Position numbers and translations under genes: made by a program
Notes under the pieces: model-generated
Told to the model about the DNA's origin: nothing
Seen by the model: the letters and a program-made list of their open reading frames with translations, nothing else
The model's database searches: none
Shown here: positions 20,131-42,804 of the stretch, one piece after another
Layout: each line of letters starts with the position of its first letter
How positions within the stretch are numbered: the stretch's first letter is position 1
Assembly: GCA_964387145.1 (NCBI GenBank)
Contig: CAYLVM010000003.1
Coordinates: 2,407-66,406, forward strand
Reading direction: 5' to 3'
DNA length: 64,000 bases
Source of the DNA: an uncultured Acidimicrobiaceae bacterium
GTDB lineage: Bacteria > Actinomycetota > Acidimicrobiia > Spongiisociales > UBA5794

Positions 20131-20197
20131 GTGATCTGTGAACTGTGATCTGTGAACTGTGAACTGTTCCTGTCATCTGTTGTCTATTTCCTGTCGT
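20131..20197. repeat. tandem heptamer array, about 9 units of GAWCTGT (site A)
   Basis: GATCTGT GAACTGT GATCTGT GAACTGT GAACTGT TCCTGT CATCTGT ... in the divergent intergenic region between the LLM oxidoreductase and the small Cys ORF/queG. Confidence 0.7.
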
Positions 20198-20237
20198 ACC
20201 CACCCGATAGCGTGTCACCCATGACCTGGAGGTACGG

Positions 20238-20441
20238 ATGATCATCGATTGTGACCGTTGTGTGATGGCGAACACGGATGCGTGCGATGGGTGCGTCGTG
20301 AGCGCCCTCGTCGGAAGTACCGGCGTACTCGCCCTGGCAGAGGAGGAAGCGCGAGCGATCGAGGCCATGAGCAGGGTCGGGCTCGTTCCCCCACTGCTCC
20401 TCGTCGAGGGAGGAGTCCGTGCAGCGGATTCGAGGTCGTAG
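20238..20441 (+). CDS. small Cys4 (CxxC-x7-CxxC) zinc-ribbon-like protein, hypothetical
   Basis: 67-aa ORF with a GGAGG RBS 5 nt upstream of ATG; about 75% GC at third positions; four cysteines in MIIDCDRCVMANTDACDGC. Confidence 0.4.
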   Translation: MIIDCDRCVMANTDACDGCVVSALVGSTGVLALAEEEARAIEAMSRVGLVPPLLLVEGGVRAADSRS

Positions 20442-20450
20442 CATGGTGGC

Positions 20451-21518
20451 ATGGATCTCCGTGACGATCTCGTATCGCTCGCAGCTGCACACGCTGCAAC
20501 GATCGGGGTGACGGATCTCGCTCCGTTCCCTGAGGTCGGCGACGAGATGCGTGCCAGGATCGACGCCGGGTCGACGTCGAAGCTCGGGTTCACCTACAAG
20601 GATGTCGGCGTGGCGGCGGCGCCGTTGCTCTCGTTTCCGTGGGGGCGCTCGATCATCGTCGTCGCCGTCGGGTATCTGCGCGACGGCGACGGCCCACGCG
20701 ATGGCCGATCCGTCGCGCGATTCGCCGATGGCGACCGGTACCACACGCTCACCACCATCCTGGGGGAACTCGCCGATCACCTGGATCGATCCGGCCACCG
20801 GGTCGAGATCGTCTTCGACGATGATCGGCTCGTCGACAGGGCAGTCGCGGCGCGAGCGGGGGTGGGGTGGTCGGGGAAGAGCTCGATGCTGCTCGTCCCG
20901 GGGCACGGACCCTGGGTGCTCCTTGGCTCCATCGTGACCGACGCGTTGCTTCCGAGAGATGAAGCGATGCTGCGGACGTGCGGTACGTGTGACGACTGCA
21001 TCCCTGCATGTCCAACGGCAGCGATCGTCGCACCGGGAGTGATCGATGCTCGTCGCTGTCTCGCAGCCATCTTTCAATCTCGAGGTGACATCCCGCGAGA
21101 GGTTCGCACTGCGGCAGGGGGGCGGATCTATGGGTGCGATGACTGTCTGACATCATGCCCTCCCGGGGCCCGTGACCTGGAATCTCGATCGCTGGAACCC
21201 GATGCCTTCACCGCACTCGATCTTCTCGGTATGAGCGATCGGGAGCTTGCCTCGTCCGTCGCTCACTGGTACGTTCCGGGCCGCCGGATGCGTTTCCTGC
21301 GGCGCAACGCGCTGGTCGCTCTCGGCAACACAGGGAGCGAGACGGCGGTTCCGGTCATCCTCGGGTACCTCGGGCACCCCGACGCCATGCTGGCAAGACA
21401 TGCCGCGTGGTCCCTCGGGGCCCTCGCACCCGATCTCGTGGGGAGCATCAGGGATCGACTCGTCGCCACAGAGCAGGACGATGGTGTCCGCCGCGAACTC
21501 GACGCCGCCTGCGCGTGA
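20451..21518 (+). CDS. queG: tRNA epoxyqueuosine(34) reductase
   Basis: Two 4Fe-4S ferredoxin motifs (CGTCDDCIPACP, CDDCLTSCPPG) and C-terminal HEAT-like repeats. Confidence 0.85.
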   Translation: MDLRDDLVSLAAAHAATIGVTDLAPFPEVGDEMRARIDAGSTSKLGFTYKDVGVAAAPLLSFPWGRSIIVVAVGYLRDGDGPRDGRSVARFADGDRYHTLTTILGELADHLDRSGHRVEIVFDDDRLVDRAVAARAGVGWSGKSSMLLVPGHGPWVLLGSIVTDALLPRDEAMLRTCGTCDDCIPACPTAAIVAPGVIDARRCLAAIFQSRGDIPREVRTAAGGRIYGCDDCLTSCPPGARDLESRSLEPDAFTALDLLGMSDRELASSVAHWYVPGRRMRFLRRNALVALGNTGSETAVPVILGYLGHPDAMLARHAAWSLGALAPDLVGSIRDRLVATEQDDGVRRELDAACA

Positions 21519-21582
21519 AGCCGGTCGGGCGGGTCTACGCTGAAGTGTCGCAACGGCGGCGGTTCGCTGAAGGGAGACGACG

Positions 21583-21873
21583 ATGACGATGCTGTTCGGC
21601 GCTGCGCTGTTGGTCGGGTTCGTCATGCTGCTCGCCTGGGTGGCAGCCGCAACCGTTGCCGGAAGCGTCGAGGGCCACGAGCACCAGGACCCCGAGCGGT
21701 ATCTCGGCGTCGTTGGGCGCTCGGTGATGGCGGCGTTCCTTGGATTCGGCATGGCAGGACTGTCGTCTCTCTATGCGGGCTGGCCCGTTCCCCTCGTTGT
21801 CGTGGCGTCGCTCGGCGGTGCTGGTGCATTGGTCGGTGTCGGCGTCTGGCTCGGCCCGTCCGGGGTCGAGTAG
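21583..21873 (+). CDS. small membrane protein, hypothetical
   Basis: 96 aa with two or three TM helices and a GAAGGGAGA RBS. Confidence 0.5.
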   Translation: MTMLFGAALLVGFVMLLAWVAAATVAGSVEGHEHQDPERYLGVVGRSVMAAFLGFGMAGLSSLYAGWPVPLVVVASLGGAGALVGVGVWLGPSGVE

Positions 21874-21875
21874 CC

Positions 21876-22670
21876 GTGCTCATCGTCGCCGATGTCCACG
21901 CAGCAAGTGAAGCCCTCGCGCGTGTTGCCTCCCGCGGTGAGACGCTGCTCATCCTTGGTGATCTCGTGAACCTGATCGACTACCGCACCGGCGAGGGGAT
22001 CGTTGCAGACGTCGTTGGACTCGACACGGTCACCGCTATCGCGACCCTTCGTGAGCAGAATCGTTTCGATGAGGCGTCTGCAGTCTGGTCGACACGTGTC
22101 GCCGGTATCGAGGATCGCGTGCGAAACGACGTCGGTGTGGCAATGGCGAGTCAGTACGAGCAGGTTGCTGAGGCGCTCGGAGGGGTCGACGCGTACGTCA
22201 CCTACGGGAACGTCGACCGGCCCGACATGCTCGAAGCGAGCCTTCCCCCGTCATCGAGGTACGTCGATGCCGACGTCGTGGACATCGAAGGATGGAGTGT
22301 CGGATTCGTCGGTGGCGGTGTACCGAAGCTCGGCACCGATGGTGAGGTCACCCCGTCGGTCATGGCGGACAAACTCGGTCGTCTCGGCCCGGTCGACGTG
22401 CTGTGCAGCCACGTGCCACCGGCGATCGAGCCGCTGGCACGCGATGTCGTTGGGAGAGGATTCAAGGGGTCTGTCGAGATCCTCGAGTACATCGACGAGT
22501 TCCAGCCTGCTTTCCACTTCTTCGGTGACATCCATCAACCCCAGGCCCTGGTGTGGCGCCGCGGTGTCACCGTCTGTCGGAACGTTGGCTACTTCCGAGC
22601 GACGGGTCGACCGTTCCCGTTCCCGGCCAAATACGGGAAGGATCGCCCTTCGCTCCCGGAGGGCCCGTGA
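21876..22670 (+). CDS. metallophosphoesterase (calcineurin-like)
   Basis: MLIVADVHA...LLILGDLV and GNVD/GDIH motifs; GTG start. Confidence 0.7.
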   Translation: MLIVADVHAASEALARVASRGETLLILGDLVNLIDYRTGEGIVADVVGLDTVTAIATLREQNRFDEASAVWSTRVAGIEDRVRNDVGVAMASQYEQVAEALGGVDAYVTYGNVDRPDMLEASLPPSSRYVDADVVDIEGWSVGFVGGGVPKLGTDGEVTPSVMADKLGRLGPVDVLCSHVPPAIEPLARDVVGRGFKGSVEILEYIDEFQPAFHFFGDIHQPQALVWRRGVTVCRNVGYFRATGRPFPFPAKYGKDRPSLPEGP

Positions 22671-23386
22671 GCTCGATCGATCTCGATGACCTCGCCAGGG
22701 GGTACGCATACCGGCAGCCGTCGTCGGCCACACGGAAACGTGCCCGTGATGCTGCCCGGGACCAGAGCGGCATCCTGCTCGATGTCGGTGGCGGTACGGG
22801 AGCACACGCCGGTGAGTGGGCTATGGGCGGGGGCGTGCCCATCGTCGTAGACCCCTCTGGACAGATGTGTTCGATCGCAGCGACACGGCGAGGCGTCGAG
22901 GTCGTCACCGCCAGAGCAGAGGCTCTTCCGTTCGTCGGACGAAGTGCCGGACTCGTGTACTTCCACCTCTCCATCCACTACGGCGCGCTCGACGCGGTGA
23001 TCGACGAGGCGTGTCGCGTGGCCGTACCCGGTGCCAGGATCGAGATATGGACGTTCGCTCCTGAAACGATGGCATCGTCCGCCCTTGCACGATGGTTCCC
23101 TTCGATCGGACCGATCGACGCTGCAAGGTTCCCGGAGATCGACCGGATCGTCGAGCATCTCTCACAACGCGGCGCCTCCGTCGAAGTGCTGGCCATGCCC
23201 GAGGTGGTGGAACGAACTGCTGCATCGTGGCAGGAGGCAGTGGCCAACAGGTTCGTCTCGACGTTGCAGCTCATCTCGAGCAATGAGATGGCCCGAGGCC
23301 TCGCCCGGTTCACCGAGACGTACCCCGATCCCAACGATGTCTACCGCTACACGATCGACTTCGTCCGTGTCCGGGCGACACGATGA
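22667..23386 (+). CDS. class I SAM-dependent methyltransferase
   Basis: LLDVGGGTGAHA motif I; probable GTG start overlapping the upstream stop as GTGA (the ORF-track ATG at 22553 lies inside the upstream gene). Confidence 0.6.
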   Translation: MSSIDLDDLARGYAYRQPSSATRKRARDAARDQSGILLDVGGGTGAHAGEWAMGGGVPIVVDPSGQMCSIAATRRGVEVVTARAEALPFVGRSAGLVYFHLSIHYGALDAVIDEACRVAVPGARIEIWTFAPETMASSALARWFPSIGPIDAARFPEIDRIVEHLSQRGASVEVLAMPEVVERTAASWQEAVANRFVSTLQLISSNEMARGLARFTETYPDPNDVYRYTIDFVRVRATR

Positions 23387-23440
23387 GCGACGCTACCTGT
23401 GGCGCTAACCTGCGCCACCAAGATCACAAAGGAGGTACGC

Positions 23441-23884
23441 GTGACCGTGGAGGGAACCGTACAACGCATCGAGGTATCTGCCGAGCCACAGCACGTCTAC
23501 GAGGTCGCTCTCGATCTCGAGGCGTACCCGGAGTGGGCCGGCGGCGTCAAGACGGTCGCGGTCACCAAACAGGATGAGTACGGAAGGCCCCAAGAGGCAG
23601 ACTTCGTAGTCGACGGCATGGTCAAGGAGATTTCCTACACGCTCGTGTACGACTTCAACCACGACAATGGTTTCTCCTGGAAAGCGATCCCGAACGACGA
23701 CATCACGGAACTCAAGGGTCAGTACGAGTTCAACGAGATGGAAGAGGGCTGTTGTGAGGTCGTGTACGCACTCAAGGTAGATCCGGCCTTCACCGTCCCC
23801 GGGTTCCTCCGTCGTCAGGCCGAGAAGCAGATCGTCGGCACAGCACTGCGTGGGCTCAAGAAGCGGGCTGAAGAGACCAACTGA
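23441..23884 (+). CDS. SRPBCC (polyketide cyclase/START-like) family protein
   Basis: About 150 aa with the Bet v1-like pattern; GTG start after an AAAGGAGG RBS. Confidence 0.6.
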   Translation: MTVEGTVQRIEVSAEPQHVYEVALDLEAYPEWAGGVKTVAVTKQDEYGRPQEADFVVDGMVKEISYTLVYDFNHDNGFSWKAIPNDDITELKGQYEFNEMEEGCCEVVYALKVDPAFTVPGFLRRQAEKQIVGTALRGLKKRAEETN

Positions 23885-25062
23885 TGCGGATTATCCTGGT
23901 CACTGGCAAGGGGGGAGTCGGCAAGACCACCGTCTCGGCAGCGACAGCACTGCGGGCAGCCGACCTTGGCTACCGCACGCTCGTGATGTCGACCGACCCG
24001 GCACACTCTCTCGCTGACGCATTCAGTTGTCGGCTCGGAGACGACCCCACACCTGTGGTCCCGAACCTCGATGCACAACAGATCGACAGTCAGCAACGAC
24101 TCGAAGAGTCGTGGGGAGACGTTCGAGACCACCTCACCGAGTTGTTCGACTGGTCAGGGCTCAAGGGGATCGAGGCTGAGGAGCTCACCGTGTTCCCCGG
24201 GATGGACGAACTGTTCTCGCTTGCATCGGTGCGTGACCACGCGCGTTCCGATGAGTACGACCTCATCGTCGTCGACTGTGCGCCGACGGCGGAGACTCTT
24301 CGATTGCTGAGCTTGCCCGAGGTGATGTCGTGGTACATGGACAAGATGTTCCCGCTTTCACGACGCGTCGTGAAAGTCGTTCGGCCCGTGCTGGCCAAGA
24401 TGTCGTCGATGCCGGTGGCCGACGACGCCGTCTTCGATGCAGTCGCCCGGTTCTATGAGCGCCTCGATGGGATCCGCGAGTTGTTGTCAGACCCCGAGAT
24501 CACGACGGCGAGGCTCGTCATGAACCCGGAGAAGATGGTGATTGCCGAAGCCCGCAGGACGTACACCTACCTCGGGCTCTTCGGCTACGGTGTCGACTCG
24601 GCGATCGTCAACCGCGTTCTCCCCGACTCGGTCACGGACCCCTACTTCGACCGATGGCGCGAGATCCAGGAGGGTCATCTCGAGACGGTGGCCGATGGGT
24701 TCATCGGCACCGACATCCGAACGCTGCGACTCTTCGACGAGGAGATGGTCGGAATCGAGTTGTTGAGGGTGGTTGCCGAGGAGCTCTACGGGGACGATGA
24801 CCCGACAGACCGGCTCTCAGCGATCGATCCGCTCAGGATTGAAGACGAGGCCGATTCCGACGACGTCGCCCTCGTGCTCAGCGTTCCCCTCGCAGAGAAG
24901 GGCGACGTCGACGTCATGAGGCACGACGACGAGCTCTTCGTGACGATCGGGCCGTACCGACGAAGCCTCGTGCTCCCCGATTCACTGAAGCGACGCAAGA
25001 TCAAACGAGCCAAGCTCGACGCGGGAGAGCTCCGCGTCTTGTTCACATTGGAGGATCGATGA
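23884..25062 (+). CDS. ArsA/GET3-family anion-transporting ATPase with C-terminal Hsp20/CS-like domain
   Basis: Deviant Walker A GKGGVGKTT, STDPAHSL, ~300-aa ATPase core plus a C-terminal beta-sandwich-like extension. Confidence 0.8.
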   Translation: MRIILVTGKGGVGKTTVSAATALRAADLGYRTLVMSTDPAHSLADAFSCRLGDDPTPVVPNLDAQQIDSQQRLEESWGDVRDHLTELFDWSGLKGIEAEELTVFPGMDELFSLASVRDHARSDEYDLIVVDCAPTAETLRLLSLPEVMSWYMDKMFPLSRRVVKVVRPVLAKMSSMPVADDAVFDAVARFYERLDGIRELLSDPEITTARLVMNPEKMVIAEARRTYTYLGLFGYGVDSAIVNRVLPDSVTDPYFDRWREIQEGHLETVADGFIGTDIRTLRLFDEEMVGIELLRVVAEELYGDDDPTDRLSAIDPLRIEDEADSDDVALVLSVPLAEKGDVDVMRHDDELFVTIGPYRRSLVLPDSLKRRKIKRAKLDAGELRVLFTLEDR

Positions 25063-25247
25063 GCAACGAGAAATCGACTGATGCACTCGTGGACGGCGTC
25101 AAGACGGCAGTCGTTCACTTCGGGAAGGCCGCATTCGAGGTCGCAGCAGGTGTTGGCTCCCTCTTCATCGGGATCACCCAAACGGTACGATCCGGTTCAC
25201 AGCCCGATGACAACGACACCGGCCCACAGAAGGTCCCCGTCGAGTAG
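25059..25247 (+). CDS. small hypothetical protein
   Basis: 62-aa ORF whose start overlaps the ArsA stop as ATGA; no recognisable domain. Confidence 0.3.
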   Translation: MSNEKSTDALVDGVKTAVVHFGKAAFEVAAGVGSLFIGITQTVRSGSQPDDNDTGPQKVPVE

Positions 25248-25259
25248 GAGGTCGCGTTC

Positions 25260-26192
25260 ATGTCAACGATCGGGATCGATCTCGGTGGAACCAAGGCGCT
25301 TGCCGTGCTTGTCGACGACGGCGAGGTCACAGAGACGCGGCGCGTTGGCCTCGATCGCTCTCTCGGCACCATCGATGCGGTCATCGCATCGATCGAGGCC
25401 ATCCAGAGCGACGACACGACGTCGATCGGCGTGGGTGTCGCCGGACTCGTACGGACGTCCGATGGTGTTCTGGTCTGGGGTCCCCACCTTCCGGGAAGCA
25501 ACGTCGCGATCGGTTCGGAGATCTCGAAACGGTTCGGCGTCCCGGTGTTCGTCGACAACGACGCGAACACGGCCCTGTACGGCGAGCTGAAGTTCGGTGT
25601 GGCGAGCGGCTATCGCGATGTCGTGCTGGTCACGCTCGGCACGGGGATCGGTGGTGCGATCGCCGTCGACGGTGAGATCTACCGCGGGTCCGGGTTCGCA
25701 GGCGAGTGGGGGCACGTGCGTGTGGAAGGTGACGGTCTGCTGTGCGACTGTGGTCGCAGAGGATGTTGGGAGACCCGAGCGTCCGGGCCCGCACTGGTAC
25801 GACTTGCAAAGGAGGTCACGACGGGGAACCCCGATTGTGCATTGGCACGGATCTTGAACGGCGCCCCGATCACGGGAGAGACCGTCGTTGCTGCAGCCGA
25901 TGCGGGTGACGAGACGGCTCGTGCCCTCGTCACCGAGGTCGGTCGTGCACTCGGGCAAGGTCTCGCCGACCTGACGGCCATTCTCGATCCAGAGTTGATC
26001 GTCGTTGGCGGCGGTCTCGGTTCGATCGGCGAGTCGATCGTCGGACCTGCACGCCGGGTTCTCGCCGACTCGCTTCATGGTGGGAATCTTCGGGTTCCTC
26101 CTACCGTTCAGGTAGCGAAGCTCGGACCAACGGCAGGTGCTGTTGGTGCTGCGCTCATGGCTGAAGAGGAGACGCGTGGACGACTTGGGTAG
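25260..26192 (+). CDS. ROK-family glucokinase / sugar kinase
   Basis: IGIDLGGTK N-terminus and the ROK zinc motif CDCGRRGCWE. Confidence 0.85.
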   Translation: MSTIGIDLGGTKALAVLVDDGEVTETRRVGLDRSLGTIDAVIASIEAIQSDDTTSIGVGVAGLVRTSDGVLVWGPHLPGSNVAIGSEISKRFGVPVFVDNDANTALYGELKFGVASGYRDVVLVTLGTGIGGAIAVDGEIYRGSGFAGEWGHVRVEGDGLLCDCGRRGCWETRASGPALVRLAKEVTTGNPDCALARILNGAPITGETVVAAADAGDETARALVTEVGRALGQGLADLTAILDPELIVVGGGLGSIGESIVGPARRVLADSLHGGNLRVPPTVQVAKLGPTAGAVGAALMAEEETRGRLG

Positions 26193-26199
26193 AAACCAG

Positions 26200-26592: not shown

Positions 26593-26627
26593 GCCGGGCG
26601 CTGTACGATCGGCGCTATCGTCGTCCC

Positions 26628-27809: not shown

Positions 27810-27866
27810 AACCGGTCTGCACCACGACAGGTCACAACGTCGTCACCAATCCGGGGTAGGAAGAAC

Positions 27867-30882: not shown

Positions 30883-32133
30883 GTGAATCAGCGCAGGGTG
30901 GTCGTCACCGGCCTCGGGTCCGTGACATCCCTCGGGTTGGACGTCGAAACGTACTGGTCGAACATCCTTGCCGGGAAGAGCGGGGTATCGGCGATCGAGC
31001 GAATCGACGTCTCGGACATCACAGCCAAGATCGCTGCCGAGATCAAAGATTTCGATATCGAGGAGTACATGTCGCGGCGCGATGCCCGGCGGCTCGACCG
31101 TGCGAGCCAGTACTTCTGGGTTGCCACGAAGCAGGCTCTCGAAGATGCAGACATCTCCTTCGATGAGGACGACCCCGACGCACTGCGCGCAGGTGTCCTC
31201 GCAGGAACGGGGATAGGTGGTATCGAGACGCTCGAAGAACAGGTCGGAGTTCTCATCTCCAAGGGGCCCCGGCGCATGTCGCCGTACGGTATTGCAAAGA
31301 TCATCTCGAACATGGCAGGTGGAGTGGCGTCGATCGATTTCCATCTCTACGGGCCGAACTCGACAACGGTCACCGCGTGTGCCGCATCGGCAAACGCGAT
31401 CGGTGACGGTGCTGCCATCATCGCCCGCGGTGCAGCTGACGTCATGGTCGCTGGTGGGGGAGAAGCCGCGATCACCCGGTTCGCCATGGCGGGGTTCGCT
31501 CAGGCAAGAGCGCTCAGCACCAACAACGATGATCCCGAAGGCGCTTCCCGACCTTTCGACCTCAACCGGGACGGATTCGTCATGGGTGAGGGAGCAGCCG
31601 TCTTGATCCTCGAGGAGTATGAACGTGCCGTTGCTCGCGGAGCACAGATCTACGCCGAGGTGCTCGGCTACGGCATGTCCGCCGATGGGTATCACATAAC
31701 ACTGCCACGTCCCGGGGGTGCGGGAGCGGCTCGCTCGATGCAAGCAGCGATGCTCGATGCCGGTCTCGAACCCTCCGAGATCGGCTACATCAACGCTCAC
31801 GGAACATCCACACCGGCCAACGACAAGACCGAGACTGCAGCGATCAAGACCGCGTTCGGTGAAGACGTCGCGTACACGGTGCCGATCTCATCGACGAAGT
31901 CGATGACCGGACACCTCCTCGGTGCCGCAGGAGCGATCGAGTCGTTGTCATGCATCCTTGCCATTCGCGACGGGGTCATCCCGCCGACGATCAACTACGT
32001 GACCCCGGATCCAGAGTGCGATCTCGGCTACGTGCCGAACGTCAAGCGTGAGGTTCCCATCACCACCGCAATGACGAACTCGTTCGGGTTCGGAGGCCAC
32101 AACGTGTCACTCATCTTCGGAGCGGTCGACTAA
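30883..32133 (+). CDS. fabF: 3-oxoacyl-ACP synthase II
   Basis: GTG start after an AGGAGA RBS (VNQRRVVVTGLG); KAS motifs CAAS, HGTST, GHLLGAAG; the ORF-track 5' extension overlaps fabG and acpP and is not coding. Confidence 0.9.
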   Translation: MNQRRVVVTGLGSVTSLGLDVETYWSNILAGKSGVSAIERIDVSDITAKIAAEIKDFDIEEYMSRRDARRLDRASQYFWVATKQALEDADISFDEDDPDALRAGVLAGTGIGGIETLEEQVGVLISKGPRRMSPYGIAKIISNMAGGVASIDFHLYGPNSTTVTACAASANAIGDGAAIIARGAADVMVAGGGEAAITRFAMAGFAQARALSTNNDDPEGASRPFDLNRDGFVMGEGAAVLILEEYERAVARGAQIYAEVLGYGMSADGYHITLPRPGGAGAARSMQAAMLDAGLEPSEIGYINAHGTSTPANDKTETAAIKTAFGEDVAYTVPISSTKSMTGHLLGAAGAIESLSCILAIRDGVIPPTINYVTPDPECDLGYVPNVKREVPITTAMTNSFGFGGHNVSLIFGAVD

Positions 32134-32136
32134 CAG

Positions 32137-32179
32137 CAGACGGCTTTCGGCCTACGGCTTTCGGTCTACGGTTCTCGGC
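32137..32179. repeat. three tandem copies of a 14-nt unit (CTACGGCTTTCGGY) immediately after the fabF stop
   Basis: ACGGCTTTCGG at 32140 and 32154, ACGGTTCTCGG at 32168. Confidence 0.6.
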
Positions 32180-32238
32180 GGAGAATGCCCTGGGGGGTGT
32201 TCGCGTACCGGGCTCGCAGGCTCGCAATCCCCCCTCGC

Positions 32239-32742
32239 TCACTGCGTTCGCTTGTCCCCCCTGAAGGGGGGACGGTCGGGTGTGGTGGGATCGTCTTCGC
32301 CGTCCTCGTCTGGCTGTGAACCGTCGGCTGTGAACTGTGAACCGTCCGGTACCTCACACCCGACTCCCGTCGGCGGCAACCCGGCGTCCACCCGTTCGTT
32401 GTACTCGTCGAAGGAGCGGCTCACGAGCGCAGCGACGATCCCGACGCCAACGAAAGCTGCGATCGCCGTGACGATCCCCGCGATGACCTCCAGGCCGGTA
32501 CAGGTGTTGGGGAGGCAGATCGTCGACACGATGCTCGAGCCGATCAGGCCGCCCGTCATCGCTCCGACGAACACCGTCATGACGATCGCGGGGCGGACGT
32601 TGAAACGGGCCGCACCGTATCCGAATCCGGCACCGAGTACGGCACCGACGGCACCTCCCACAGCACCGAGGAGGAGCCACCCGGTCACCGCTCCGAACAG
32701 AGCGTTGACGGAGATCGAGAGCAGGTCACTCGGACGCATCAT
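32239..32742 (-). CDS. glycine-zipper membrane protein, hypothetical
   Basis: GxxxG-rich TM helices and an acidic C-terminus; the 3' end is encoded through the heptamer array and a palindrome. Confidence 0.5.
   Translation of the reverse strand: MMRPSDLLSISVNALFGAVTGWLLLGAVGGAVGAVLGAGFGYGAARFNVRPAIVMTVFVGAMTGGLIGSSIVSTICLPNTCTGLEVIAGIVTAIAAFVGVGIVAALVSRSFDEYNERVDAGLPPTGVGCEVPDGSQFTADGSQPDEDGEDDPTTPDRPPFRGDKRTQ
32258..32277. terminator. perfect GC palindrome GTCCCCCC-TGAA-GGGGGGAC, candidate bidirectional terminator for convergent fabF and the membrane gene
   Basis: 8-bp G/C stem with a 4-nt loop; lies inside the last codons (PPFRGD) of the minus-strand gene. Confidence 0.4.
32312..32349. 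repeat. tandem heptamer array GGCTGT GAACCGT CGGCTGT GAACTGT GAACCGT (site D)
   Basis: Same CTGTGAAC core as site A; lies in the 3' end of the minus-strand membrane gene, just downstream of fabF. Confidence 0.65.
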
Positions 32743-35019: not shown

Positions 35020-35099
35020 GATGGCCCAGCTTGGCTCGATAGCAAGCCTGGGCAAGCAGTAGAGGACACGACGGGCAGCTCACTTCGCCCGCTCGATGA

Positions 35100-35615: not shown

Positions 35616-35638
35616 CGAGGTCGCGACATCCGAGTACC

Positions 35639-38131
35639 TCAGTTCCGCGGTGGGTGCCCGCGGCGTCGCTTTCGCCCGTTTCGCTGACCGAGGAACGTTC
35701 TGTAGCGGGTGATGATGCGGGTCGGCCGGTAGGCTGCAAGAACTCTTTCGAGCGCTGAGTATCGACGTATCAAGTGCTCTTGGGCCTCGATGTGGGCCAC
35801 CGTTGCGCGTTCGATCACGGAAACAGACGTCTCACGGTCCCCGTACAACGTATCGCTGTACGTGCGGGCGAGGGGGAGGAATGCCCGATCGATGTTCTGT
35901 GCCGCCTCGAGCGGGGTCGTTGCCGGGTCGATCGGGTCACCGAGGTCGGCGAGCCTGTCCGTGATGTCCTCCCACGCCGCGGCCACGTCACCGTGAGCAA
36001 GGCGGTTGCGTCGCCGTCGTGCTCGGAGCCACTTCGTTGTAGGTGCCGCACCGGCGAGGATGGCGACGGCGGCGAGTGCGATGGTGAGGTCGACCAACCA
36101 CGCCGGCAACTCGATCCCGTTCGACGTCGAGTCGGCGGCTCCTCCACCCGAGGCACGGATACGGTCGACCGGCTCGGGGCGGTCGAAGCGGCTCTGGTCC
36201 GGGCCCGTCTCTCCGCCTTCGGTGTCGACTACATCGATGTCGGGGATCTCATCGATATACGCAACGGGTGAGAAGTCCAGGTACTCGGTGAGCGTGTCGT
36301 TGATGGTCGGTGCCGAGTACCCGGGGCGGGGAGTGGGGTCGAACATCATCCAACCGAACTGTGGGATCCAGATCTCGACCCAGCTGTGTGCGTTCTTGTC
36401 CTGGATCACTACCGTGTTGTCGTTCAGCAACTCTTTGCCTGGGGCGAATCCGAGGACGACTCGCGACGGTATCCCGAGTGCTCGTGCCATGAGGGCCATC
36501 GACGTCGCGTACTGTTCGCAGTAGCCGTTACGGACGTAGGGGTTGGATTCGTCTGTGAGCCAGTCCTCGACGGACGAGGTCGTGTACTGGGCGGGTACGC
36601 TGTCGTTGTAGGTGAACTCACCGTACTGCTCGTCGCCGTACCGGAAGTACTGTTCGAGGGCGATCGCCTTTTCGTAGTTGGTCTCGAGGTTCGTCGTGAG
36701 ACCCTCAGCGATCCGGATGACACCTGCTCCGAGGTCGTCCGGGTACTCGGTCCAGAACTCCTCGTTTGCCAGAGCAAGCGGTTCGAGTTCGATGCCCGGC
36801 TTCGGAAGGTAAGCGTTGTCGTCAGCGGCTGCTTGGAAAAGCGGGCTCAGCGTCCCATCCTCGGTGCGTGCCAGGGCCGCAAGGGTCGCTCCGGAGTACC
36901 TGGCCACCTCTGCACGCACGGTGTACTCCATGCCCTTGTAGGTCGTGTCGCCCGGGAGGAATAGCGACCCGTCGAGTCTCCGAACACGGATCGACCTGAG
37001 GTCCCCTTCGTTGGTCGTCCCCACGAAGTTCGATGTCGTAGGGGCGGGCATCCATGGCTGTGTGAGGTTCTCGATTCGGATTGCCACGGTCACCGGGAGA
37101 GTCTCGCCGCGATACACCTGGGACTCGTCGATCCACGTCTCTGTGTCGATCGGGAATGCCCGGACCCGGTCGGTCTGCCACCGTCCGTCCCGGTACACGT
37201 CGAGTGTCACGGTGCGGAACCGGAGCTGATCTGGCGAAACACCATCGATGGTGGCCACGAACAGCGGGAGGTTGGTCTGACTGATCAGCTGAGCCTTGAT
37301 GTCGGTGTACGGGTTGTACGAGACCGAGCCGGAGTAGTCGTCGGTGTATCCAGACGGTGCGCGCCATGTGATGAGGCCGTCGTTGGGAACGGTGCCGCCG
37401 AGGAAGGCAACGGATCCGATCGCCGCCACGATCGTTACAGCGACGAGAGCCATGACCGCCAACGACGGTCGCTTGCTCGGAGGGCGCGTCGCCCCGACGC
37501 GCTGAAGTCGACCGGATCCCTGATCGCGCTCATCCGCTCTGATCGCAAGCAGCGACAATGCAACGATTCCAAGGAACACGGCGACGTGGATGATCCCTTT
37601 CGGGCGACGGTCGATGATCACGAACTGAAGGGCGATGACGAGTGGCGTGATCACGGCGATGTACGGACGATCGGTGAGGAGCCCTGCAACGAGAAGGAAC
37701 CCGAGTATCCAGAACAAGACGGCAAGGAGGAGGATGAGGCCTGGTACCGGCCTGACAGGTTCGACGCCGTAGCGGATGATCTCGAGCGCCCGACCGATCT
37801 CGAACTGCACCGTCGTCCACGTTGCCGATGTGGGGAGCACCGTCCAGAGCGTATCGGGGGCGACCAGGAGGCCACCGGTGATCATGAAACCGACGACGTT
37901 TCCCGCAACGACCACCACAGCGTGGGCGCGGTACGCAAGGAGGATCCAAGTGACCGCAGCGCCGAGCGTCGTGGCGATGATGATGGCGAGCTGCCACGGT
38001 GTTCCGACCACCGAGGGGCGAAGCACGAACGACAGTTCCCAAAAGGCGATACCGAGCGCACCGGCGCCCGCTATCCAGCTGTAGCGGTAGACCATCCGTG
38101 CTCCATGGCGTGTCTCCAAGGCTCGTCCCAC
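35639..38131 (-). CDS. transglutaminase-like membrane protein (DUF3488 / TgpA-type)
   Basis: N-terminal multi-TM region, transglutaminase core (GYCEQYATSMALMARALGIPSRVV, H/D residues), C-terminal TM plus DUF4129-like tail. Confidence 0.8.
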   Translation of the reverse strand: MGRALETRHGARMVYRYSWIAGAGALGIAFWELSFVLRPSVVGTPWQLAIIIATTLGAAVTWILLAYRAHAVVVVAGNVVGFMITGGLLVAPDTLWTVLPTSATWTTVQFEIGRALEIIRYGVEPVRPVPGLILLLAVLFWILGFLLVAGLLTDRPYIAVITPLVIALQFVIIDRRPKGIIHVAVFLGIVALSLLAIRADERDQGSGRLQRVGATRPPSKRPSLAVMALVAVTIVAAIGSVAFLGGTVPNDGLITWRAPSGYTDDYSGSVSYNPYTDIKAQLISQTNLPLFVATIDGVSPDQLRFRTVTLDVYRDGRWQTDRVRAFPIDTETWIDESQVYRGETLPVTVAIRIENLTQPWMPAPTTSNFVGTTNEGDLRSIRVRRLDGSLFLPGDTTYKGMEYTVRAEVARYSGATLAALARTEDGTLSPLFQAAADDNAYLPKPGIELEPLALANEEFWTEYPDDLGAGVIRIAEGLTTNLETNYEKAIALEQYFRYGDEQYGEFTYNDSVPAQYTTSSVEDWLTDESNPYVRNGYCEQYATSMALMARALGIPSRVVLGFAPGKELLNDNTVVIQDKNAHSWVEIWIPQFGWMMFDPTPRPGYSAPTINDTLTEYLDFSPVAYIDEIPDIDVVDTEGGETGPDQSRFDRPEPVDRIRASGGGAADSTSNGIELPAWLVDLTIALAAVAILAGAAPTTKWLRARRRRNRLAHGDVAAAWEDITDRLADLGDPIDPATTPLEAAQNIDRAFLPLARTYSDTLYGDRETSVSVIERATVAHIEAQEHLIRRYSALERVLAAYRPTRIITRYRTFLGQRNGRKRRRGHPPRN

Positions 38132-39255
38132 TTCCCGGTCGCGCTCGTCCTCACCATGAGGGCACCCGCATGCGCGAAACGAACGACGGCGTCATCATCG
38201 TCCTCTGCAACAGAGAGTACGACCGTTCTGTAGAAATCCTGACTAAGAAGTTGGAACGTCGCAATATCTGCTTCGTCGGGTGTGCCCGTGACCATGACGA
38301 ATACACCGCCGGCCATACCCGACCTCCTCAGGCCAGCGACAACCTGGCGCAGGTCCATCGAGCGCACCGGGCGAACCGTTGCGAGCTCCTCCATGGCAAT
38401 GGTGTACGCGTCGGGTGAGCCGACGAGCGTCCCGTTCCCGAAGCCCGCCCACATCGTTGGTGTGTATCCGGATCGGAACAGATGGTGAAGCACAGACGCT
38501 GCCCCTCGCACCGCCTGCTCGAAGCTGTCACCAGAGGCGTGGGGCTCCGCTCTGGGATCGAGAGCGATGAACGCACGGGACTGCCACGGCATCTCGAGCT
38601 GTTTCACCATCAACGTGTCCCTGCGGGCCGATGAGGGCCAGTGGACCTTGCGGATATCGTCGCCATGCTGGTACTCGCGCAGGGTGAAGAAGTCCTCACC
38701 GCTGCTGTGCCAGAAGCTGGCCCGAGATGTGTTCATCGTCTGGTCCTGGCCACGCCCGGTGGGAACGCCCGTGAGATCCTCTACCCGCGGGTAGACGACG
38801 AGACGATCGGCGACGCCGAAGGTCGAGACGGACTCTGTGAACCCGAGTGGGTCTCCTATCGTCACCCTCGCCGGGCCGACGGTGTACACGCCGCGGGGGC
38901 GACACAGCACCTCGTAGCGGCCCGCCGTCGAGTCTCCATCGGCGATCCTGTCGGCAACGAACGTAGCGGATCCCAGACCGTGGACACGGTCCTCGATCGA
39001 GACGCGGAAGATCTTTCTTCGAGACTCGAGCGACAGATCGACGAGGGCCCGATCCCCATCGTGGAGCTGCATCGGGCTGATTCGACGCTTGAGCACGAGG
39101 CGCGGTACCGCCAGGCGCACGTACAAGGAACCGCCGGCAACCGCTGCAAGAAGGAACACGGCGAGTGCGAGCAAGAGATCCTCCCCGAACCCTGCCCAGA
39201 GAACCCCGAGTGCAACAGCGGCTCCGATCGCCGCCCAACCCCGGGTAGTCGGCAT
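38071..39255 (-). CDS. DUF58 (vWA-like) domain protein
   Basis: TLREYQHGDDIRKVHWPSSAR DUF58 signature; lies between MoxR and the transglutaminase gene as in known three-gene operons. Confidence 0.8.
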   Translation of the reverse strand: MPTTRGWAAIGAAVALGVLWAGFGEDLLLALAVFLLAAVAGGSLYVRLAVPRLVLKRRISPMQLHDGDRALVDLSLESRRKIFRVSIEDRVHGLGSATFVADRIADGDSTAGRYEVLCRPRGVYTVGPARVTIGDPLGFTESVSTFGVADRLVVYPRVEDLTGVPTGRGQDQTMNTSRASFWHSSGEDFFTLREYQHGDDIRKVHWPSSARRDTLMVKQLEMPWQSRAFIALDPRAEPHASGDSFEQAVRGAASVLHHLFRSGYTPTMWAGFGNGTLVGSPDAYTIAMEELATVRPVRSMDLRQVVAGLRRSGMAGGVFVMVTGTPDEADIATFQLLSQDFYRTVVLSVAEDDDDAVVRFAHAGALMVRTSATGKWDEPWRHAMEHGWSTATAG

Positions 39256-40283
39256 CAGACGGTGGGCCTCGTACCTGGTACCGGGATGGATGAAGCAACC
39301 TGGTCGATCACTTCGAGGGCAGTCACACCACGCATCTGAGCCTCTGGTCGGACGATCAGGCGGTGATTCAAGACGGGTTCGAGGATGGCTTTCACGTCGT
39401 CGGGACTCGCGTAGTCTCGGCCATCGGCCGCCGCCATCGATCGGGCAGCGCGCTGGAGGAACAATGTTGCACGGGGAGACGCGCCGAGGAGGATGTCGGG
39501 GTGGACCCTCGTTGCCTCGGCGACATCGATCAGGTAGCCGCGGAGCACGTCCGCGACGTGGACGCTCTGGACGATTGAAGCCATCCGCACGACGTCCTCA
39601 GCGTGGATGACGGGTTTGAGGTCGTGGAACGTCGAACCTGCGCCGTGGGTCTCGAGCATCTCGAGTTCCTTGGCACGTTCGGGGTAGCCCATCGTGACAC
39701 GCATCATGAATCGGTCGAGCTGTGCTTCAGGAAGCGGATACGTTCCCTCGTGTTCGATCGGGTTCTGGGTCGCGATCACGATGAACGGCCTATCGAGTAC
39801 GCGTGTCTCGGCGTCGACCGTCACCTGCTGTTCCTCCATCGCTTCGAGGAGAGCAGCCTGGGTCTTGGGGCTTGCGCGGTTGATCTCATCGCCAAGAACC
39901 ACGTTCGCGAACACCGGTCCCGGTCTGAACGTGAAGATGCCACGCTCGCGGTCCCATACAGAGACACCCGTCACGTCCGATGGGAGCAGATCCGGGGTGA
40001 ACTGGATCCGTTGGAATGTGCAATCGATCGATCGTGCGAGCGCCTTGGCGAGCAGCGTCTTGCCGACACCGGGGACGTCTTCGATCAGCACGTGGCCTTC
40101 AGCAACCAGGCTTGCCACGACGAGTTCGATCGTCGATCGCTTGCCCTGGATGATGCGTTCGATGTTGCTCGTCACCGTGGCGAAACGGTCACCGAACCAC
40201 GTCAGATCGTCTGGCGACAGGGACACGTTGCCTCCTCGTATGTCCTGTGGCGGTCTCCTGACGATACCCGTCCACATATCCAT
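39255..40283 (-). CDS. MoxR-family AAA+ ATPase
   Basis: Walker A DVPGVGKT, Walker B VVLGDEINRASPKTQ. Confidence 0.85.
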   Translation of the reverse strand: MDMWTGIVRRPPQDIRGGNVSLSPDDLTWFGDRFATVTSNIERIIQGKRSTIELVVASLVAEGHVLIEDVPGVGKTLLAKALARSIDCTFQRIQFTPDLLPSDVTGVSVWDRERGIFTFRPGPVFANVVLGDEINRASPKTQAALLEAMEEQQVTVDAETRVLDRPFIVIATQNPIEHEGTYPLPEAQLDRFMMRVTMGYPERAKELEMLETHGAGSTFHDLKPVIHAEDVVRMASIVQSVHVADVLRGYLIDVAEATRVHPDILLGASPRATLFLQRAARSMAAADGRDYASPDDVKAILEPVLNHRLIVRPEAQMRGVTALEVIDQVASSIPVPGTRPTV

Positions 40284-40589
40284 AGGTGCAGAGTTGGGTA
40301 CCTGCTGCGCTCTGAGCTCGCTACCGTGGAACCATGATCAGCTTCAACGCCGTGCGTGTGGTTGCGCGACACCCCACGCTCTGGATGACCGCCCTGGGTT
40401 CTGCTGCTGCGCTCGCCCCCCGGCGATGGTGGATGCGCTGGCCGTTTCTCCCGATTCCGGACCCCGACGTGGTGTCGTGGAGAGTGACTACTGCTTATGG
40501 ACACGGGGAAATGGCCCTTGTGCCCGAGGACCTCATTTTGTATCTTCGATGGAGGAGGAAGGCACCATTGTGAGCGTTGGGAGGAATAC

Positions 40590-41468
40590 GTGAGTCTGCG
40601 CTCTCTCGAAGATGATCTATGCAAGATACCCGGCGTCGAAGGTGCCGAGATCGATGGTTCCGGGGATACCCCCGGCGGTCTCCGCATCAGGATCGCTGAG
40701 GGGACAGACCAGCGCGCTGTGGGTCAGGCCATCCGCCAGGTACTCACCAAGCACGGTCTCGGTACTGATACTCGTCTGCCTGGGGAGGACCAGAACGACG
40801 CGGGAGCTGTCACGGCGCCCGGCGAGACCGCGACAGAAGTAGCAGCGGTCGAGGCTGTTGCCGAGGCGGCCCTCGACGTCCGAACATCCACCGTCGCGGT
40901 CATCGAGGACGAGGGCGGAGAGGAACCCGGGTCCACCATCGTGGATCTGACTGAGCACGCCGACGACGAGCATGAGGAACGAGACGATGGCGCCGGAGAG
41001 GACTCCGGCGCTGAGGAGCCACCGATCGAGGAGGTCGCGGACGCTGTGGAAGCATCACCATCTCCCGGATCATGGGTGGCTGCCGGACTTGATCCCGTTG
41101 CTCCCCGTGTCTCCGATGGCCCTCCAGGGTCCGGTGTCATTGCAAAGCTGGATCGTGTCGCCGTCGAGGAAGCCCGCAACGGCATCTCGGTGACGGTGTC
41201 AACGACAGACGGTCGCACCGCGACCGAGCCCGCTTCGAGCACAGAAGGTGGCGTCGAGGCCGCGGTGGTCAAGGCAGCAGCGAAGCTGGCACGGCCCGGT
41301 ACGCCCGCCCCGAGCATCGTGGAGATCGAAGACCGCAGGATCGAGGGGGTCGACGTTGTCATGATCGTCCTTAACGTCGACGGCACCCTTGCAGTTGGTG
41401 CCGCGATCGTCGTCGCAGGGCGGTCGTTCGCTCTCGGCCGTGCAACCTGGGCCGCACTCTCGATGTAG
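40590..41468 (+). CDS. acidic low-complexity hypothetical protein
   Basis: GTG start after a GGGAGG RBS; Glu/Asp/Ala-rich middle; structured N- and C-terminal segments; no confident family. Confidence 0.45.
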   Translation: MSLRSLEDDLCKIPGVEGAEIDGSGDTPGGLRIRIAEGTDQRAVGQAIRQVLTKHGLGTDTRLPGEDQNDAGAVTAPGETATEVAAVEAVAEAALDVRTSTVAVIEDEGGEEPGSTIVDLTEHADDEHEERDDGAGEDSGAEEPPIEEVADAVEASPSPGSWVAAGLDPVAPRVSDGPPGSGVIAKLDRVAVEEARNGISVTVSTTDGRTATEPASSTEGGVEAAVVKAAAKLARPGTPAPSIVEIEDRRIEGVDVVMIVLNVDGTLAVGAAIVVAGRSFALGRATWAALSM

Positions 41469-41473
41469 GTAGA

Positions 41474-41498
41474 GGTATCTGGTACTTGGTATCTGGTA
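41474..41498. repeat. direct repeat of the 11-mer GGTATCTGGTA (two copies, 3-nt spacer)
   Basis: Starts 6 nt after the stop of the acidic hypothetical gene. Confidence 0.5.
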
Positions 41499-41530
41499 GT
41501 TGGAGGATCAGCGGGTGGGGAGCATCCGTT

Positions 41531-41621
41531 CTCCGTTTACCGACTACCGGCGACTCGCAAGCACCCAGGAACAGTCCGGTTTTCCGACTGTGATCTGTGA
41601 TCTGTGAACTGTCAACTCACC
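41531..41621. repeat. left imperfect inverted repeat (heptamers + TCGGAAAACCGGACTGTTC + GCCGGTA..GGTAAACGG)
   Basis: Reverse complement of 41531..41621 aligns with 42771..42843, with 19/21 identity in the TCGGAAAMCCGGACTGYTC block. Confidence 0.6.
41586..41621. repeat. tandem heptamer array GACTGT GATCTGT GATCTGT GAACTGT CAACTCA (site B)
   Basis: Downstream of the recombinase-like gene; part of the left inverted repeat. Confidence 0.7.
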
Positions 41622-41644
41622 GGCGATCGAGTCACTCAGGTCGC

Positions 41645-42181
41645 TCAGGGAGTGGCGTGGAGTTGGATGATGACGTCGGTGGGGTCGTCGAGTTCTTGTG
41701 CGAGGTCGGTAGGGTCGAGGGATTCGACCGGGGCAGGCTCGACGGTGGGAACGGCGTCGTTGCTCAGCCCATAGGCTCCCTGATACTGATGGACCTTCGC
41801 AACGATGTCGCGCACGATCATCCGGGTGTGATCGTCGGCGGCGTCGCGCAGTGCCTCGAGGTCGTGCTCGTCGGTGGCGATCACCGTCGCACCGGCTTCC
41901 TTGATATCGACGATGATGATCTCCTGGGTCACCACATCGGGGGAGAGGGCAGCGAGGTTTCCCACGACGACGGCATCGACCCGACCGGCACGCACGATGT
42001 CGAGCAGAGCTCTGAGTCCCGGGCGGTCGAACGCCGTGCTCGCCGCTCGATGATCCTGGCACACCACGATGAGTTCATGGCCGGCGTCACGGACCCACCG
42101 TCGTACCCGCTCGCTCTGAGCGAACGCGCTATCCGGGTCTGTGTGCCCTGGGGCCTGCCTGACGTAGCCAGCGATGTTCAC
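41645..42181 (-). CDS. resolvase/serine-recombinase N-terminal-domain-like protein, predicted catalytically inactive
   Basis: Resolvase-fold pattern (VNIAGYVRQ..., DRPGLRALLDIVRAGRVDAVVVGNLAALSPD); the nucleophile Ser is replaced (YVRQA versus YARVS), the D67/R68 equivalents are replaced, and there is no C-terminal HTH; GTG start after a GGAAGG RBS. Confidence 0.55.
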   Translation of the reverse strand: MNIAGYVRQAPGHTDPDSAFAQSERVRRWVRDAGHELIVVCQDHRAASTAFDRPGLRALLDIVRAGRVDAVVVGNLAALSPDVVTQEIIIVDIKEAGATVIATDEHDLEALRDAADDHTRMIVRDIVAKVHQYQGAYGLSNDAVPTVEPAPVESLDPTDLAQELDDPTDVIIQLHATP

Positions 42182-42290
42182 GTGATGCCTTCCTGACCAA
42201 CTCAGTATCGCAGGTGTGCGATGCGCGTTCAATCATCGTCACAGAGTGGTCGGAGATCTTCCCGGGATCGGGTGGTACGCTGGCGCGATC

Positions 42291-42803
42291 GTGGTGCGAA
42301 CACTGGTGCTCAACGCGAGTAACGAGCCGCTGTCGGTGGTTGCGGCTCGACGCGCCATCGTGCTGCTCTACCGTGAGCGTGCCGACCTCGTTGCACGCAG
42401 CAACCGCGTATGGCACGCAGAATCTGTGTCGTTCGCTGTGCCATCGGTCGTCCGCCTTCGCCGCTATGTGCCCGTGCCATACAAGCGATCGATCCCGATC
42501 TCTCGACGGGCGATCTTCCTTCGTGACGACCATAGGTGTCAGTACTGCGGTCGACGAGCAGAGAACATCGATCACGTCATCCCGAAGGTGCAGGGGGGAG
42601 AGCACATCTGGGAGAACGTCGTGGCATCCTGCCAGCGGTGCAACTCTCGTAAGGGGGGACGGACGCCGTTGCAGGCCGGCCTGACACTCATCCGCACGCC
42701 TGTGCGGCCCGGCCGATTCGACTGGGTGTACGTGGCAGCCGGCGGTTACGCCGACGGTACCTGGCAACCGTTCATCGGTTCACAGTTGACCGTTCACAGT
42801 TGA
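42291..42803 (+). CDS. HNH endonuclease (McrA-like small HNH family)
   Basis: RTLVLNASNEPL N-terminus; HNH motif CQYCGRRAENIDHVIPKVQGGEHIWENVVASCQRCNSRKG; start taken at GTG 42291; the last ~10 codons run into the heptamer array. Confidence 0.7.
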   Translation: MVRTLVLNASNEPLSVVAARRAIVLLYRERADLVARSNRVWHAESVSFAVPSVVRLRRYVPVPYKRSIPISRRAIFLRDDHRCQYCGRRAENIDHVIPKVQGGEHIWENVVASCQRCNSRKGGRTPLQAGLTLIRTPVRPGRFDWVYVAAGGYADGTWQPFIGSQLTVHS

Positions 42804-42804
42804 C
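42771..42804. repeat. tandem heptamer array on the opposite strand: TTCACAG TTGACCG TTCACAG TTGACAG TTCACC (site C)
   Basis: Reverse complement of the GAACTGT units; overlaps the last codons of the HNH gene; part of the right inverted repeat. Confidence 0.7.

Follow-up and report, generated by a model that had tools for sequence, protein, structure and literature searches.

What are the tandem 7-nt arrays that recur at gene boundaries in this stretch of actinobacterial DNA? The window, by which we mean the whole analysed stretch of 64,000 nucleotides (contig CAYLVM010000003.1), carries such arrays at four loci, here called A to D. We conclude that they are probably dispersed, STRR-like heptanucleotide simple-sequence repeats of an Acidimicrobiia chromosome, spread by an element or by recombination and without a dedicated binding protein. 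An initial annotation had listed the four loci, and arrays are indeed present at each of them. Array A (20131–20197, forward strand) opens with five intact GTGAWCT units, GTGATCT GTGAACT GTGATCT GTGAACT GTGAACT (20131–20167), followed by four to five decayed ones (GTTCCT GTCATCT GTTGTCT ATTTCCT). In array B (32312–32349, forward strand), which reads CTGTGAA CCGTCGG CTGTGAA CTGTGAA CCGTCCG, three CTGTGAA units are interspersed with two CCGTCNG units. Array C (41586–41621, forward strand) consists of CTGTGAT CTGTGAT CTGTGAA CTGTCAA, and array D, on the reverse strand, of GGGTGAA CTGTCAA CTGTGAA CGGTCAA CTGTGAA CCGATGA; at 42771–42813 it is slightly longer than first reported. Tandem Repeats Finder called A, C and D as period-7/14 arrays, and B as a period-14 row (32307–32335) plus a short period-7 row (32328–32342). 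The pattern CTGTN3CTGTN3CTGT matches the window five times, compared with 0.00 matches expected from 100 shuffles, and a two-unit pattern with up to two mismatches matches 12 times compared with 0.5 expected. A CTGTGAW-type unit thus recurs at four separate loci within 64 kb, and a chance origin of the four arrays is excluded.

The positions of the arrays relative to genes are also as the initial annotation described them, with one divergent region, three convergent ends and two overlaps with open reading frames (ORFs). Array A lies between divergent genes, a luciferase-like oxidoreductase gene (start 20087, reverse strand) and a 67-aa ORF (start 20238, forward strand) that is followed downstream by a QueG-like gene on the same strand. 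The array, including its decayed units, takes up most of the 150 nt that separate the two start codons. Arrays B, C and D are all located between convergent gene ends. Array B falls within the 3' tail of an ORF on the reverse strand (32239–32742), where it is translated as ..GSQFTADGSQ.., and is followed by a flank, CTCACACCCGAC, that by eye looks related to the right flank of the element described below. Array D encodes the last eight codons of an HNH ORF (GSQLTVHS, stop at 42803). The C-terminus of this protein in the window (..TWQPFIGSQLTVHS-stop) matches the length of its counterparts in two related contigs, ..GKPLSAARST-stop in L005 and ..SEQLSAARTT-stop in L001 (contigs outside the window are given L numbers throughout); array D therefore overwrote the native last codons, with the reading frame kept.

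The four CTGT-based arrays are part of a wider preference for a period of seven. When the window was compared with itself at lags of 2 to 21, signal was found only at 7 and 14, multiples of 3 (coding) aside, and it was limited to 20111–20196, 32123–32183, 32296–32369, 41462–41638 and 42755–42831, which correspond to the four intergenic gaps. Some of this signal comes from arrays of other units that had been missed in the same gaps. In the B gap, a second-type array (32140–32179, forward strand; (ACGGCTT TCGGCCT) x 2.9, period 7/14) starts 7 nt past the stop of a ketoacyl-synthase gene. At C, the units GGTATCT GGTACTT GGTATCT GGTAGTT (41474–41503, forward strand) adjoin the left arm of the element copy described below; the same unit family, (GGTACTT)n or (AAGTACC)n, is found also in the relatives L001 and L003. 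Several heptamer families (CTGTGAW, GGTAYYT and CGGCYTW) thus share single gaps, where they are concatenated. Over 176 kb, comprising the window and related Acidimicrobiia loci, period 7 is over-represented: lag 7 gave 24 regions and lag 14 gave 21, compared with 0–7 regions for each of eight control lags, none a multiple of 3. When the period-7 regions of the lineage were sorted with the gene tables by the orientation of their neighbouring genes, about 16 of 21 were in convergent gaps.

How do these arrays behave at orthologous sites? The comparison, proposed with the original listing of the loci, shows that unit number varies (five at A compared with nine in a related copy, and four at C compared with at least ten, counts that may be collapsed if the window is a metagenome assembly), and that unit type varies as well. 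At the A site, one relative (L253, with a 98%-identical QueG) matches the window exactly in its flanking DNA from TTCCTGTCGTACCCACCC on, yet TGGCCGA TGGCCGA TGGCCGT replaces the GTGAWCT units; its contig begins inside this (TGGCCGA)n array (L253:1–43 compared with window 20111–20200). The alignment shows the replacement of one heptamer by another at a fixed point, not gradual mutation. The 88% relative L254 has no intact units in its 46-nt gap, and its CGTCTGT TGTCTGT TGTCTGT is the counterpart of the decayed units of the window. Array A together with its immediate flanks (CGACGG...CTGTTCCTGTCnnACCCACCC) recurs in another gene context in contig L237, with nine units in place of five.

At the C position, the 98% relative L127/L128 carries the same element family in the opposite orientation, about 70% identical outside the array and with at least 10 units up to the contig end. 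In relatives of 67–89% identity (L001, L003, L005 and L129), the units beside the HNH and resolvase-like gene pair are (AAGTACC)n/(GGTACTT)n, GTAGTAC-type or CTGTCRT. We also analyzed three 20-kb loci covering the B, C and D positions in relatives of about 60% identity. In one of these, L251, each of the four convergent gaps and one co-directional gap contain period-7 arrays, with the units GGACGTC, CAGAAGT, CTGTGAG, CTGAAAG and GGTCATC. In L252, arrays are found at the B and D positions and in two other gaps (GCCTACC/GGTAGGC, CGTTTTC, GAGAACA and CTGAAAG/CTGATAG). Compared with those of the window, the L251 and L252 units are unrelated or only distantly related. The third, L250, has no period-7 arrays, and its convergent gaps are just 25–110 nt long. 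Five contigs of relatives (L001, L127, L128, L129 and L253) end inside arrays, as expected for sequence that is repeated within a genome. Beside the Usp stop of L252 (9070–9300), a (GCCTACC/GCCTTGC) array and the sequence next to it, together about 130 nt, are tandemly duplicated, a case which suggests that arrays promote local duplication.

Part of the family lies inside a larger module, a non-coding element of about 158 nt. From left to right it consists of an inverted-repeat arm (GTACTTGGAGGATCCGCGGATAGGGA in the intact copies), a short core (ATCCGTTCTCCGTTTGCCGTCTACCGACGACTCACAGGCACCCAGAA), a hairpin (ACAGTCGG-GGTTT-CCGACTGT), a (CTGTGAW)n array (CTGTGAT CTGTGAT CTGTGAA CTGTCAA), a CTCACCG flank (CTCACCGAC) and a right arm (TCGCTATCCACTGATCTTCCATGTAC). 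The two intact copies, L224 and L246, were obtained together with L237 from a metagenome scan with CTGTGATCTGTGAWCTGTGAWC, as informative high-G+C contigs among the matches listed; L227, L234 and L167, also among the matches listed, carry similar arrays, and most of the matches listed belong to unrelated low-G+C taxa and to a CT-rich dispersed element of one marine metagenome. L224 and L246 are about 88–90% identical to window 41491–41658 over roughly 160–170 nt and have nothing else in common with it. The genes flanking them have no counterpart around array C, and the four units of array C are identical in both. The inverted arms of L224 are 26 nt long and 81% complementary, those of L246 are 19 nt long and 79% complementary, and the spacing is 106 nt in both. 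L224 belongs, like L253, to the UOEI hydrothermal-vent assembly.

A profile was built from copies of the element and searched by nhmmer. Full-length matches were L246, L224 and window C, with E values from 3e-61 to 6e-55; partial matches came from window D (E = 3e-9), from L129, and from L127/L128 (E = 4e-14), where the match runs as far as the contig end. At A and B, the profile matches the array part only. Copy C (41491–41658, forward strand; E = 6e-55, model positions 9–177) has a homologue of the left arm, GGAGGATCAGCGGGTGGGGAGC, at 41502–41523, followed by the core, hairpin, array and CTCACCG flank. Its right arm, which overlaps the resolvase-like gene's stop codon, is decayed, and no inverted-repeat pair was detected within this copy. 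The internal hairpin (41571–41591, forward strand; ACAGTCCGG-TTTT-CCGACTGT) extends its 3' arm into the first heptamer unit and constitutes the flank that C and D have in common. Copy D (42775–42873, reverse strand; E = 3e-9, model positions 22–141) is diverged and shortened, is inverted relative to C, and is placed between the Usp stop and the HNH stop. Together, C and D are the arms of a previously overlooked 49-nt, 84% inverted repeat that includes a common outer flank, CAGTCCGGnTTTCCGA.

Some further observations concern the element itself. The left-arm motif RRAGGATCAGYGRRTRGGGARC is kept across genomes (window 41502–41523, L003:278–297, L127:896–915 and L129:2447–2466), always after GGTACTT/GTACCAAG-type heptamers; the arm may have arisen from, or may seed, a heptamer array. 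A tiny ORF in copy C, with a Shine-Dalgarno-like GGAGGA and a GTG start (MGSIRSPFT...), was rejected, as indels between copies shift its frame and L129 and L003 have no start codon. Two viral matches to the arm motif were discarded as coding-sequence coincidences. By tblastx, the gene next to the L246 element seemed homologous to the ORF next to array B, but this was an artefact (BLASTP E = 7).

Do these arrays belong to a known kind of repeat? The window arrays have all the defining features of dispersed heptanucleotide repeats that we tested. Units occur in tandem runs of at least three, at multiple loci, with an excess of period 7 and in variable intergenic positions, which places them in a known kind of bacterial repeat. 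The 7-nt period had been regarded as atypical, but passages in PMC4679880 and PMC4692102 that draw on Mrazek (2007) describe heptamers as over-represented among the long simple-sequence repeats of many bacteria, including actinobacteria, and give a polymerase-slippage idea for the 7-nt length. In Calothrix PCC 7601, three heptanucleotide repeats have been reported (PMC4692102). The short tandemly repeated repetitive (STRR) sequences of heterocystous cyanobacteria (Calothrix PCC 7601 and Nostoc/Anabaena) resemble the window family in being dispersed tandem 7-nt intergenic families, several per genome, often concatenated and variable in copy number. In contrast to STRR, the window family is hosted by high-G+C Acidimicrobiia, its units are CTGTGAW, GGTAYYT and CGGCYTW, and part of it is contained in a 158-nt element in which a hairpin lies between inverted-repeat arms; we know of no inverted-repeat element carrying STRR. 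The STRR unit sequences were reportedly described by Mazel in 1990.

Two other groups of heptamers offer a close comparison. The GGGAATC repeats of Xanthomonas and the GGGGAYT repeats of Nostoc are about 90% intergenic, with the upstream (5') ORF on average 28 nt away and the downstream ORF 160 nt away; they are specifically over-represented and recur in the corresponding gaps of related species, where they vary extensively in length and sequence (PMC4692102, Rehm et al. 2015). The window family is likewise intergenic, found in the same gaps of relatives, variable in length and sequence, and over-represented at period 7. It differs in that the Xanthomonas and Nostoc units are G-rich and quadruplex-capable, unlike CTGTGAW, and in that only 16% of the Xanthomonas repeats lie between convergent genes, compared with most of those in the window lineage. 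TAACTGA direct repeats of marine Beggiatoaceae, cyanobacteria and Bacteroidetes are dispersed and mixed with other heptamers; in Beggiatoaceae, strains differ by indels in 7-nt steps, contigs break inside arrays, and close relatives have shorter, repeat-free gaps (PMC4679880, MacGregor 2015). The window family shares with them dispersal, the mixing of heptamers, contig breaks in arrays, and the short, empty gaps of a relative. In Beggiatoaceae, however, most sets stand a few nucleotides upstream of start codons, hinting at translational control, whereas three of the four window arrays are at 3' ends.

The 158-nt element, on the other hand, recalls miniature inverted-repeat transposable elements (MITEs). 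Correia elements of Neisseria and ERIC/IRU elements of enterobacteria are non-coding sequences of about 100–170 nt with imperfect terminal inverted repeats of about 20–26 nt, present in many intergenic copies and able to form a long hairpin once transcribed. The size, the arms and the copies at unrelated sites of the window element are similar to these; its internal microsatellite is not, and neither is the failure to find a target-site duplication or a parent insertion sequence. In repetitive extragenic palindromic (REP) sequences and BIMEs, the unit is an imperfect palindrome of 20–40 nt, accompanied by a RAYT transposase, whereas the window unit is a direct 7-mer. The suggestion of a MITE/REP-like family in the initial annotation therefore holds in part. 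Dispersal of a 158-nt element in unrelated contexts, terminal inverted repeats (26 and 19 nt) and the recurrence of A in L237 speak for it; neither a target-site duplication nor a parent transposon was found.

On these grounds, the reading of the arrays as dispersed heptanucleotide repeats can be put as a mechanism. A given unit would spread to new gaps by means of the element or by recombination between arrays, and slipped-strand mispairing would then lengthen, shorten and mutate the array. Copies would persist where insertion is least harmful, that is, between convergent gene ends, and arrays at gene ends would sometimes overwrite final codons with the reading frame kept. No dedicated sequence-specific protein would bind them. 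Their function is probably neutral or limited to incidental effects on termination or promoter spacing. It is plausible that the hairpin and array module acts incidentally as a 3'-end or terminator-like structure, and equally an incidental effect is plausible at A, where a change in unit number must alter promoter geometry.

Several points weigh against this account. The record of the family consists of four arrays in 64 kb and a handful of copies in related contigs. The three best element copies carry exactly the same four units, which fits recent spread but also selection on the array. Slippage alone explains neither the period of 7 nor the replacement of units between 98% relatives with identical flanks. 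Arrays that recur in the same gaps across relatives of about 60% identity could mean function rather than tolerance. As for the transposition step, no target-site duplication is present at L224 (GAAGAG / TCGGCG) or L246 (GATGTTCCT / AGACGCC), weak evidence given only two intact copies, and a search of plasmids, phages and viral contigs found no parent transposon with the ends of the element. There is a small chance that a heptamer-specific active process, for example a templated one that adds repeats or exchanges cassettes at gene 3' ends, makes and replaces the arrays. Such a process would explain why 7 is the sole non-coding period in 176 kb of the lineage, why arrays with unrelated units stand in the same gaps of relatives of about 60% identity, and why (TGGCCGA)n takes the place of (GTGAWCT)n between relatives with 98% protein identity and identical flanks.

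Could the arrays instead work at the RNA level or as DNA signals? In one alternative, the module of about 158 nt would be transcribed, either as a 3' untranslated region attached to the upstream gene or as a small RNA; with a stem that closes it, an internal hairpin and a heptamer tail rich in U and G, it would serve as a bidirectional terminator, an mRNA stabiliser or a platform for a multimeric RNA-binding protein. We consider this rather unlikely. Both intact copies, L224 and L246, fold better than shuffled controls (z = -3.2), but window copy C does not (z = -1.1, no better than chance). The hairpin ACAGTCGG/CCGACTGT comes directly before the array in all copies, and where both flanks are visible (window C and D, L224 and L246) the module follows closely on a stop codon in a convergent gap. 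Three copies share an identical array and all four convergent gaps of L251 contain arrays, yet unit sequences turn over completely among relatives and L250 lacks arrays at the same gaps. Searches of Rfam at the gathering threshold and at E <= 1 returned no relevant family. Between the arms of L224 and L246 no compensatory changes were seen, which with two intact copies is no real test. Scans of the arrays for sigma-70 promoter and intrinsic terminator consensus sequences found nothing above the shuffled expectation, which counts against a terminator role and likewise against the promoter role considered next. That role applies to A only: gain or loss of 7-bp units would shift promoter spacing and tune the oxidoreductase gene, the operon of the 67-aa ORF and QueG, or both, in the manner of a contingency locus. 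Expression of Haemophilus influenzae hmw is reportedly tuned by 7-bp promoter repeats. Filling most of the gap between two start codons, array A is suitably placed, and unit number and type vary among close relatives at exactly that site. In Nostoc, heptamer repeats change the promoter output of recF and recO (10.1101/2022.06.06.494920). However, the flanking genes are of a housekeeping type, unlike the surface and host-interaction genes of contingency loci, and we see only a slim chance for such tuning. It is compatible with the arrays being dispersed heptanucleotide repeats.

A protein-binding role, anticipated in the initial annotation as iterons, fares worse. Even relatives of 88–98% identity differ in units and copy number at orthologous sites, three of the four arrays stand where genes converge at their 3' ends and not at promoters of regulator or partition genes, and no candidate gene is adjacent. 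The specific form of this idea, operator or centromere-like heptads for a ribbon-helix-helix protein, has its model in the omega repressor of plasmid pSM19035, which polymerises on 7–10 contiguous heptads of consensus WATCACW. The window arrays share with these operators and parS sites contiguous 7-bp units, in direct and inverted orientation, and an ATCAC core in GATCACA. Read on the reverse strand, the units GATCACA and GTTCACA fit the consensus at 5–6 of 7 positions, but depart from it in that they start with G and that half of them have T where the consensus has A. Among the 18 ORFs around the arrays searched with Pfam and/or NCBIfam, no ribbon-helix-helix or ParA-type gene was found; four of the 18, the 67-aa ORF and three larger ones, have no family match. 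Single gaps contain several heptamer units that are unrelated to one another, and the window is chromosomal, with no plasmid similarity found. We therefore regard the likeness as a resemblance only, and omega-type heptads as very improbable. Nothing supports the further suggestion that the arrays are associated with replication or recombination.

The remaining alternative takes C and D to be oppositely oriented ends of a 1.26-kb segment, mobile or invertible, that carries a serine recombinase and an HNH nuclease. Its appeal is that the 49-nt, 84% inverted repeat brackets just two genes, one for a 178-aa protein with a resolvase fold (41645–42181, reverse strand; Pfam Resolvase), outside the repeat proper, and the other its conserved partner with an HNH endonuclease domain (42216–42803, forward strand; Pfam HNH). 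The pair, however, is part of a syntenic order beside the dcw cell-division cluster (Usp, HNH, resolvase-like, hypothetical, MoxR, DUF58 and the transglutaminase TgpA) that is found in nine relative contigs of 57–98% identity, with HNH called in four of the nine (L001, L003, L005 and L129) and an uncalled gap there in L250–L252. Given this conserved synteny, the window belongs to the chromosome of an actinobacterium of the class Acidimicrobiia. The resolvase-like protein is a member of a family of about 174 aa in metagenome-assembled genomes (MAGs) of Acidimicrobiia, in which the position of the catalytic serine is variable, GYVRQ[A/T/S/I/G]PG, with alanine in the window. In an hhalign comparison with a manually entered gamma-delta resolvase sequence, Ser10 falls on this variable column and Arg68/Arg71 on Ala and Pro. 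No C-terminal helix-turn-helix was found in the family. When the protein was compared with PDB sequences, the sole matches, to RecA, were spurious. The protein looks like a domesticated or repurposed recombinase fold. Furthermore, relatives have other heptamer arrays, or none, at these boundaries. Since the catalytic residues are missing and the synteny is conserved, C and D bound no mobile or invertible segment, and we consider that interpretation extremely unlikely. A functional tie between the gene pair and the arrays was also rejected: L250 has the pair without arrays, and arrays occur in other gaps too.

With the arrays taken as dispersed heptanucleotide repeats, what does this lineage add? 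Heptamer enrichment and the spread of single heptamers have been noted since 1990–2007 and are still unexplained, and according to PMC4692102 there is no detailed literature on heptameric repeats. Our literature search found no earlier description of such repeats in Acidimicrobiia. The window adds an actinobacterial example in which an array is physically tied to a small inverted-repeat element, a possible vehicle of dispersal. The graded series of relatives (98%, 88% and about 60%) shows unit replacement besides copy-number change at orthologous sites. There is also a warning for annotation: arrays break assemblies, extend or overwrite the 3' ends of ORFs, and can make a conserved gene pair mimic a mobile element.

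The gap around array B contains one further structure. A G+C hairpin, GTCCCCCC-TGAA-GGGGGGAC, read from the sequence at 32254–32273, is located between the two arrays of that gap. It is likely a terminator-type stem without a T tract; the consensus terminator scan made no call there. A comparable hairpin, GTCCCCC TTCAAA GGGGGAC, stands beside heptamer arrays in L003.

Beyond the lineage, a genome scan with a degenerate three-unit pattern, CTGTSAWCNGTSAWCNGTSAWC, was dominated among the matches listed by cyanobacterial (CTGTCAA)n and (CAGTCAA)n arrays and by Bacteroidota arrays. The (CTGTCAA)n arrays among the matches listed (L007–L126) are from Microcoleus, Nostoc, Calothrix, Richelia and Bacteroidota and reach at least 43 units; on the opposite strand they read (TTGACAG)n, which contains the sigma-70 -35 hexamer TTGACA. 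Sporadic (CTGTGAA)n arrays, again among the matches listed, occur in Acidobacteriota, Limnohabitans, Thermoleophilia, an archaeal MAG and others. The CT-rich element from the metagenome scan (L131–L241; metagenome Ga0115005 and related samples) is very abundant, with up to three copies per contig of 1–2 kb and a G+C content of about 42–59%, and ends in ...ctctttctctcttt CTGTGAT CTGTGAT CTGTGAT cgattgtgatattcgc. It is unrelated to the organism of the window, and may belong to a eukaryotic or another bacterial lineage.

Three minor observations concern the window itself. A two-unit look-alike of the array, CGGTGAACAGTGAAC, with two mismatches, is found at 6224–6237 on the reverse strand, where the ORFs 5759–6235 (reverse) and 6183–6962 (forward) overlap; it is probably a chance match because 0.5 matches are expected at that stringency. 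The 67-aa ORF beside array A (20238–20441, forward strand), directly upstream of the QueG-like gene, is conserved and Cys-rich (MIIDCDRCVMANTDACDGCVV...), has a strong GGAGG ribosome-binding site and no Pfam or NCBIfam match, and is called in L253 and L254 too. The divergent resolvase-like and HNH pair beside the dcw cluster encodes a resolvase-like protein of about 175 aa, with an acidic low-complexity tail ending in DVVIELI, and an HNH protein of about 190 aa; the closest relatives of the window come from a hydrothermal-vent metagenome.

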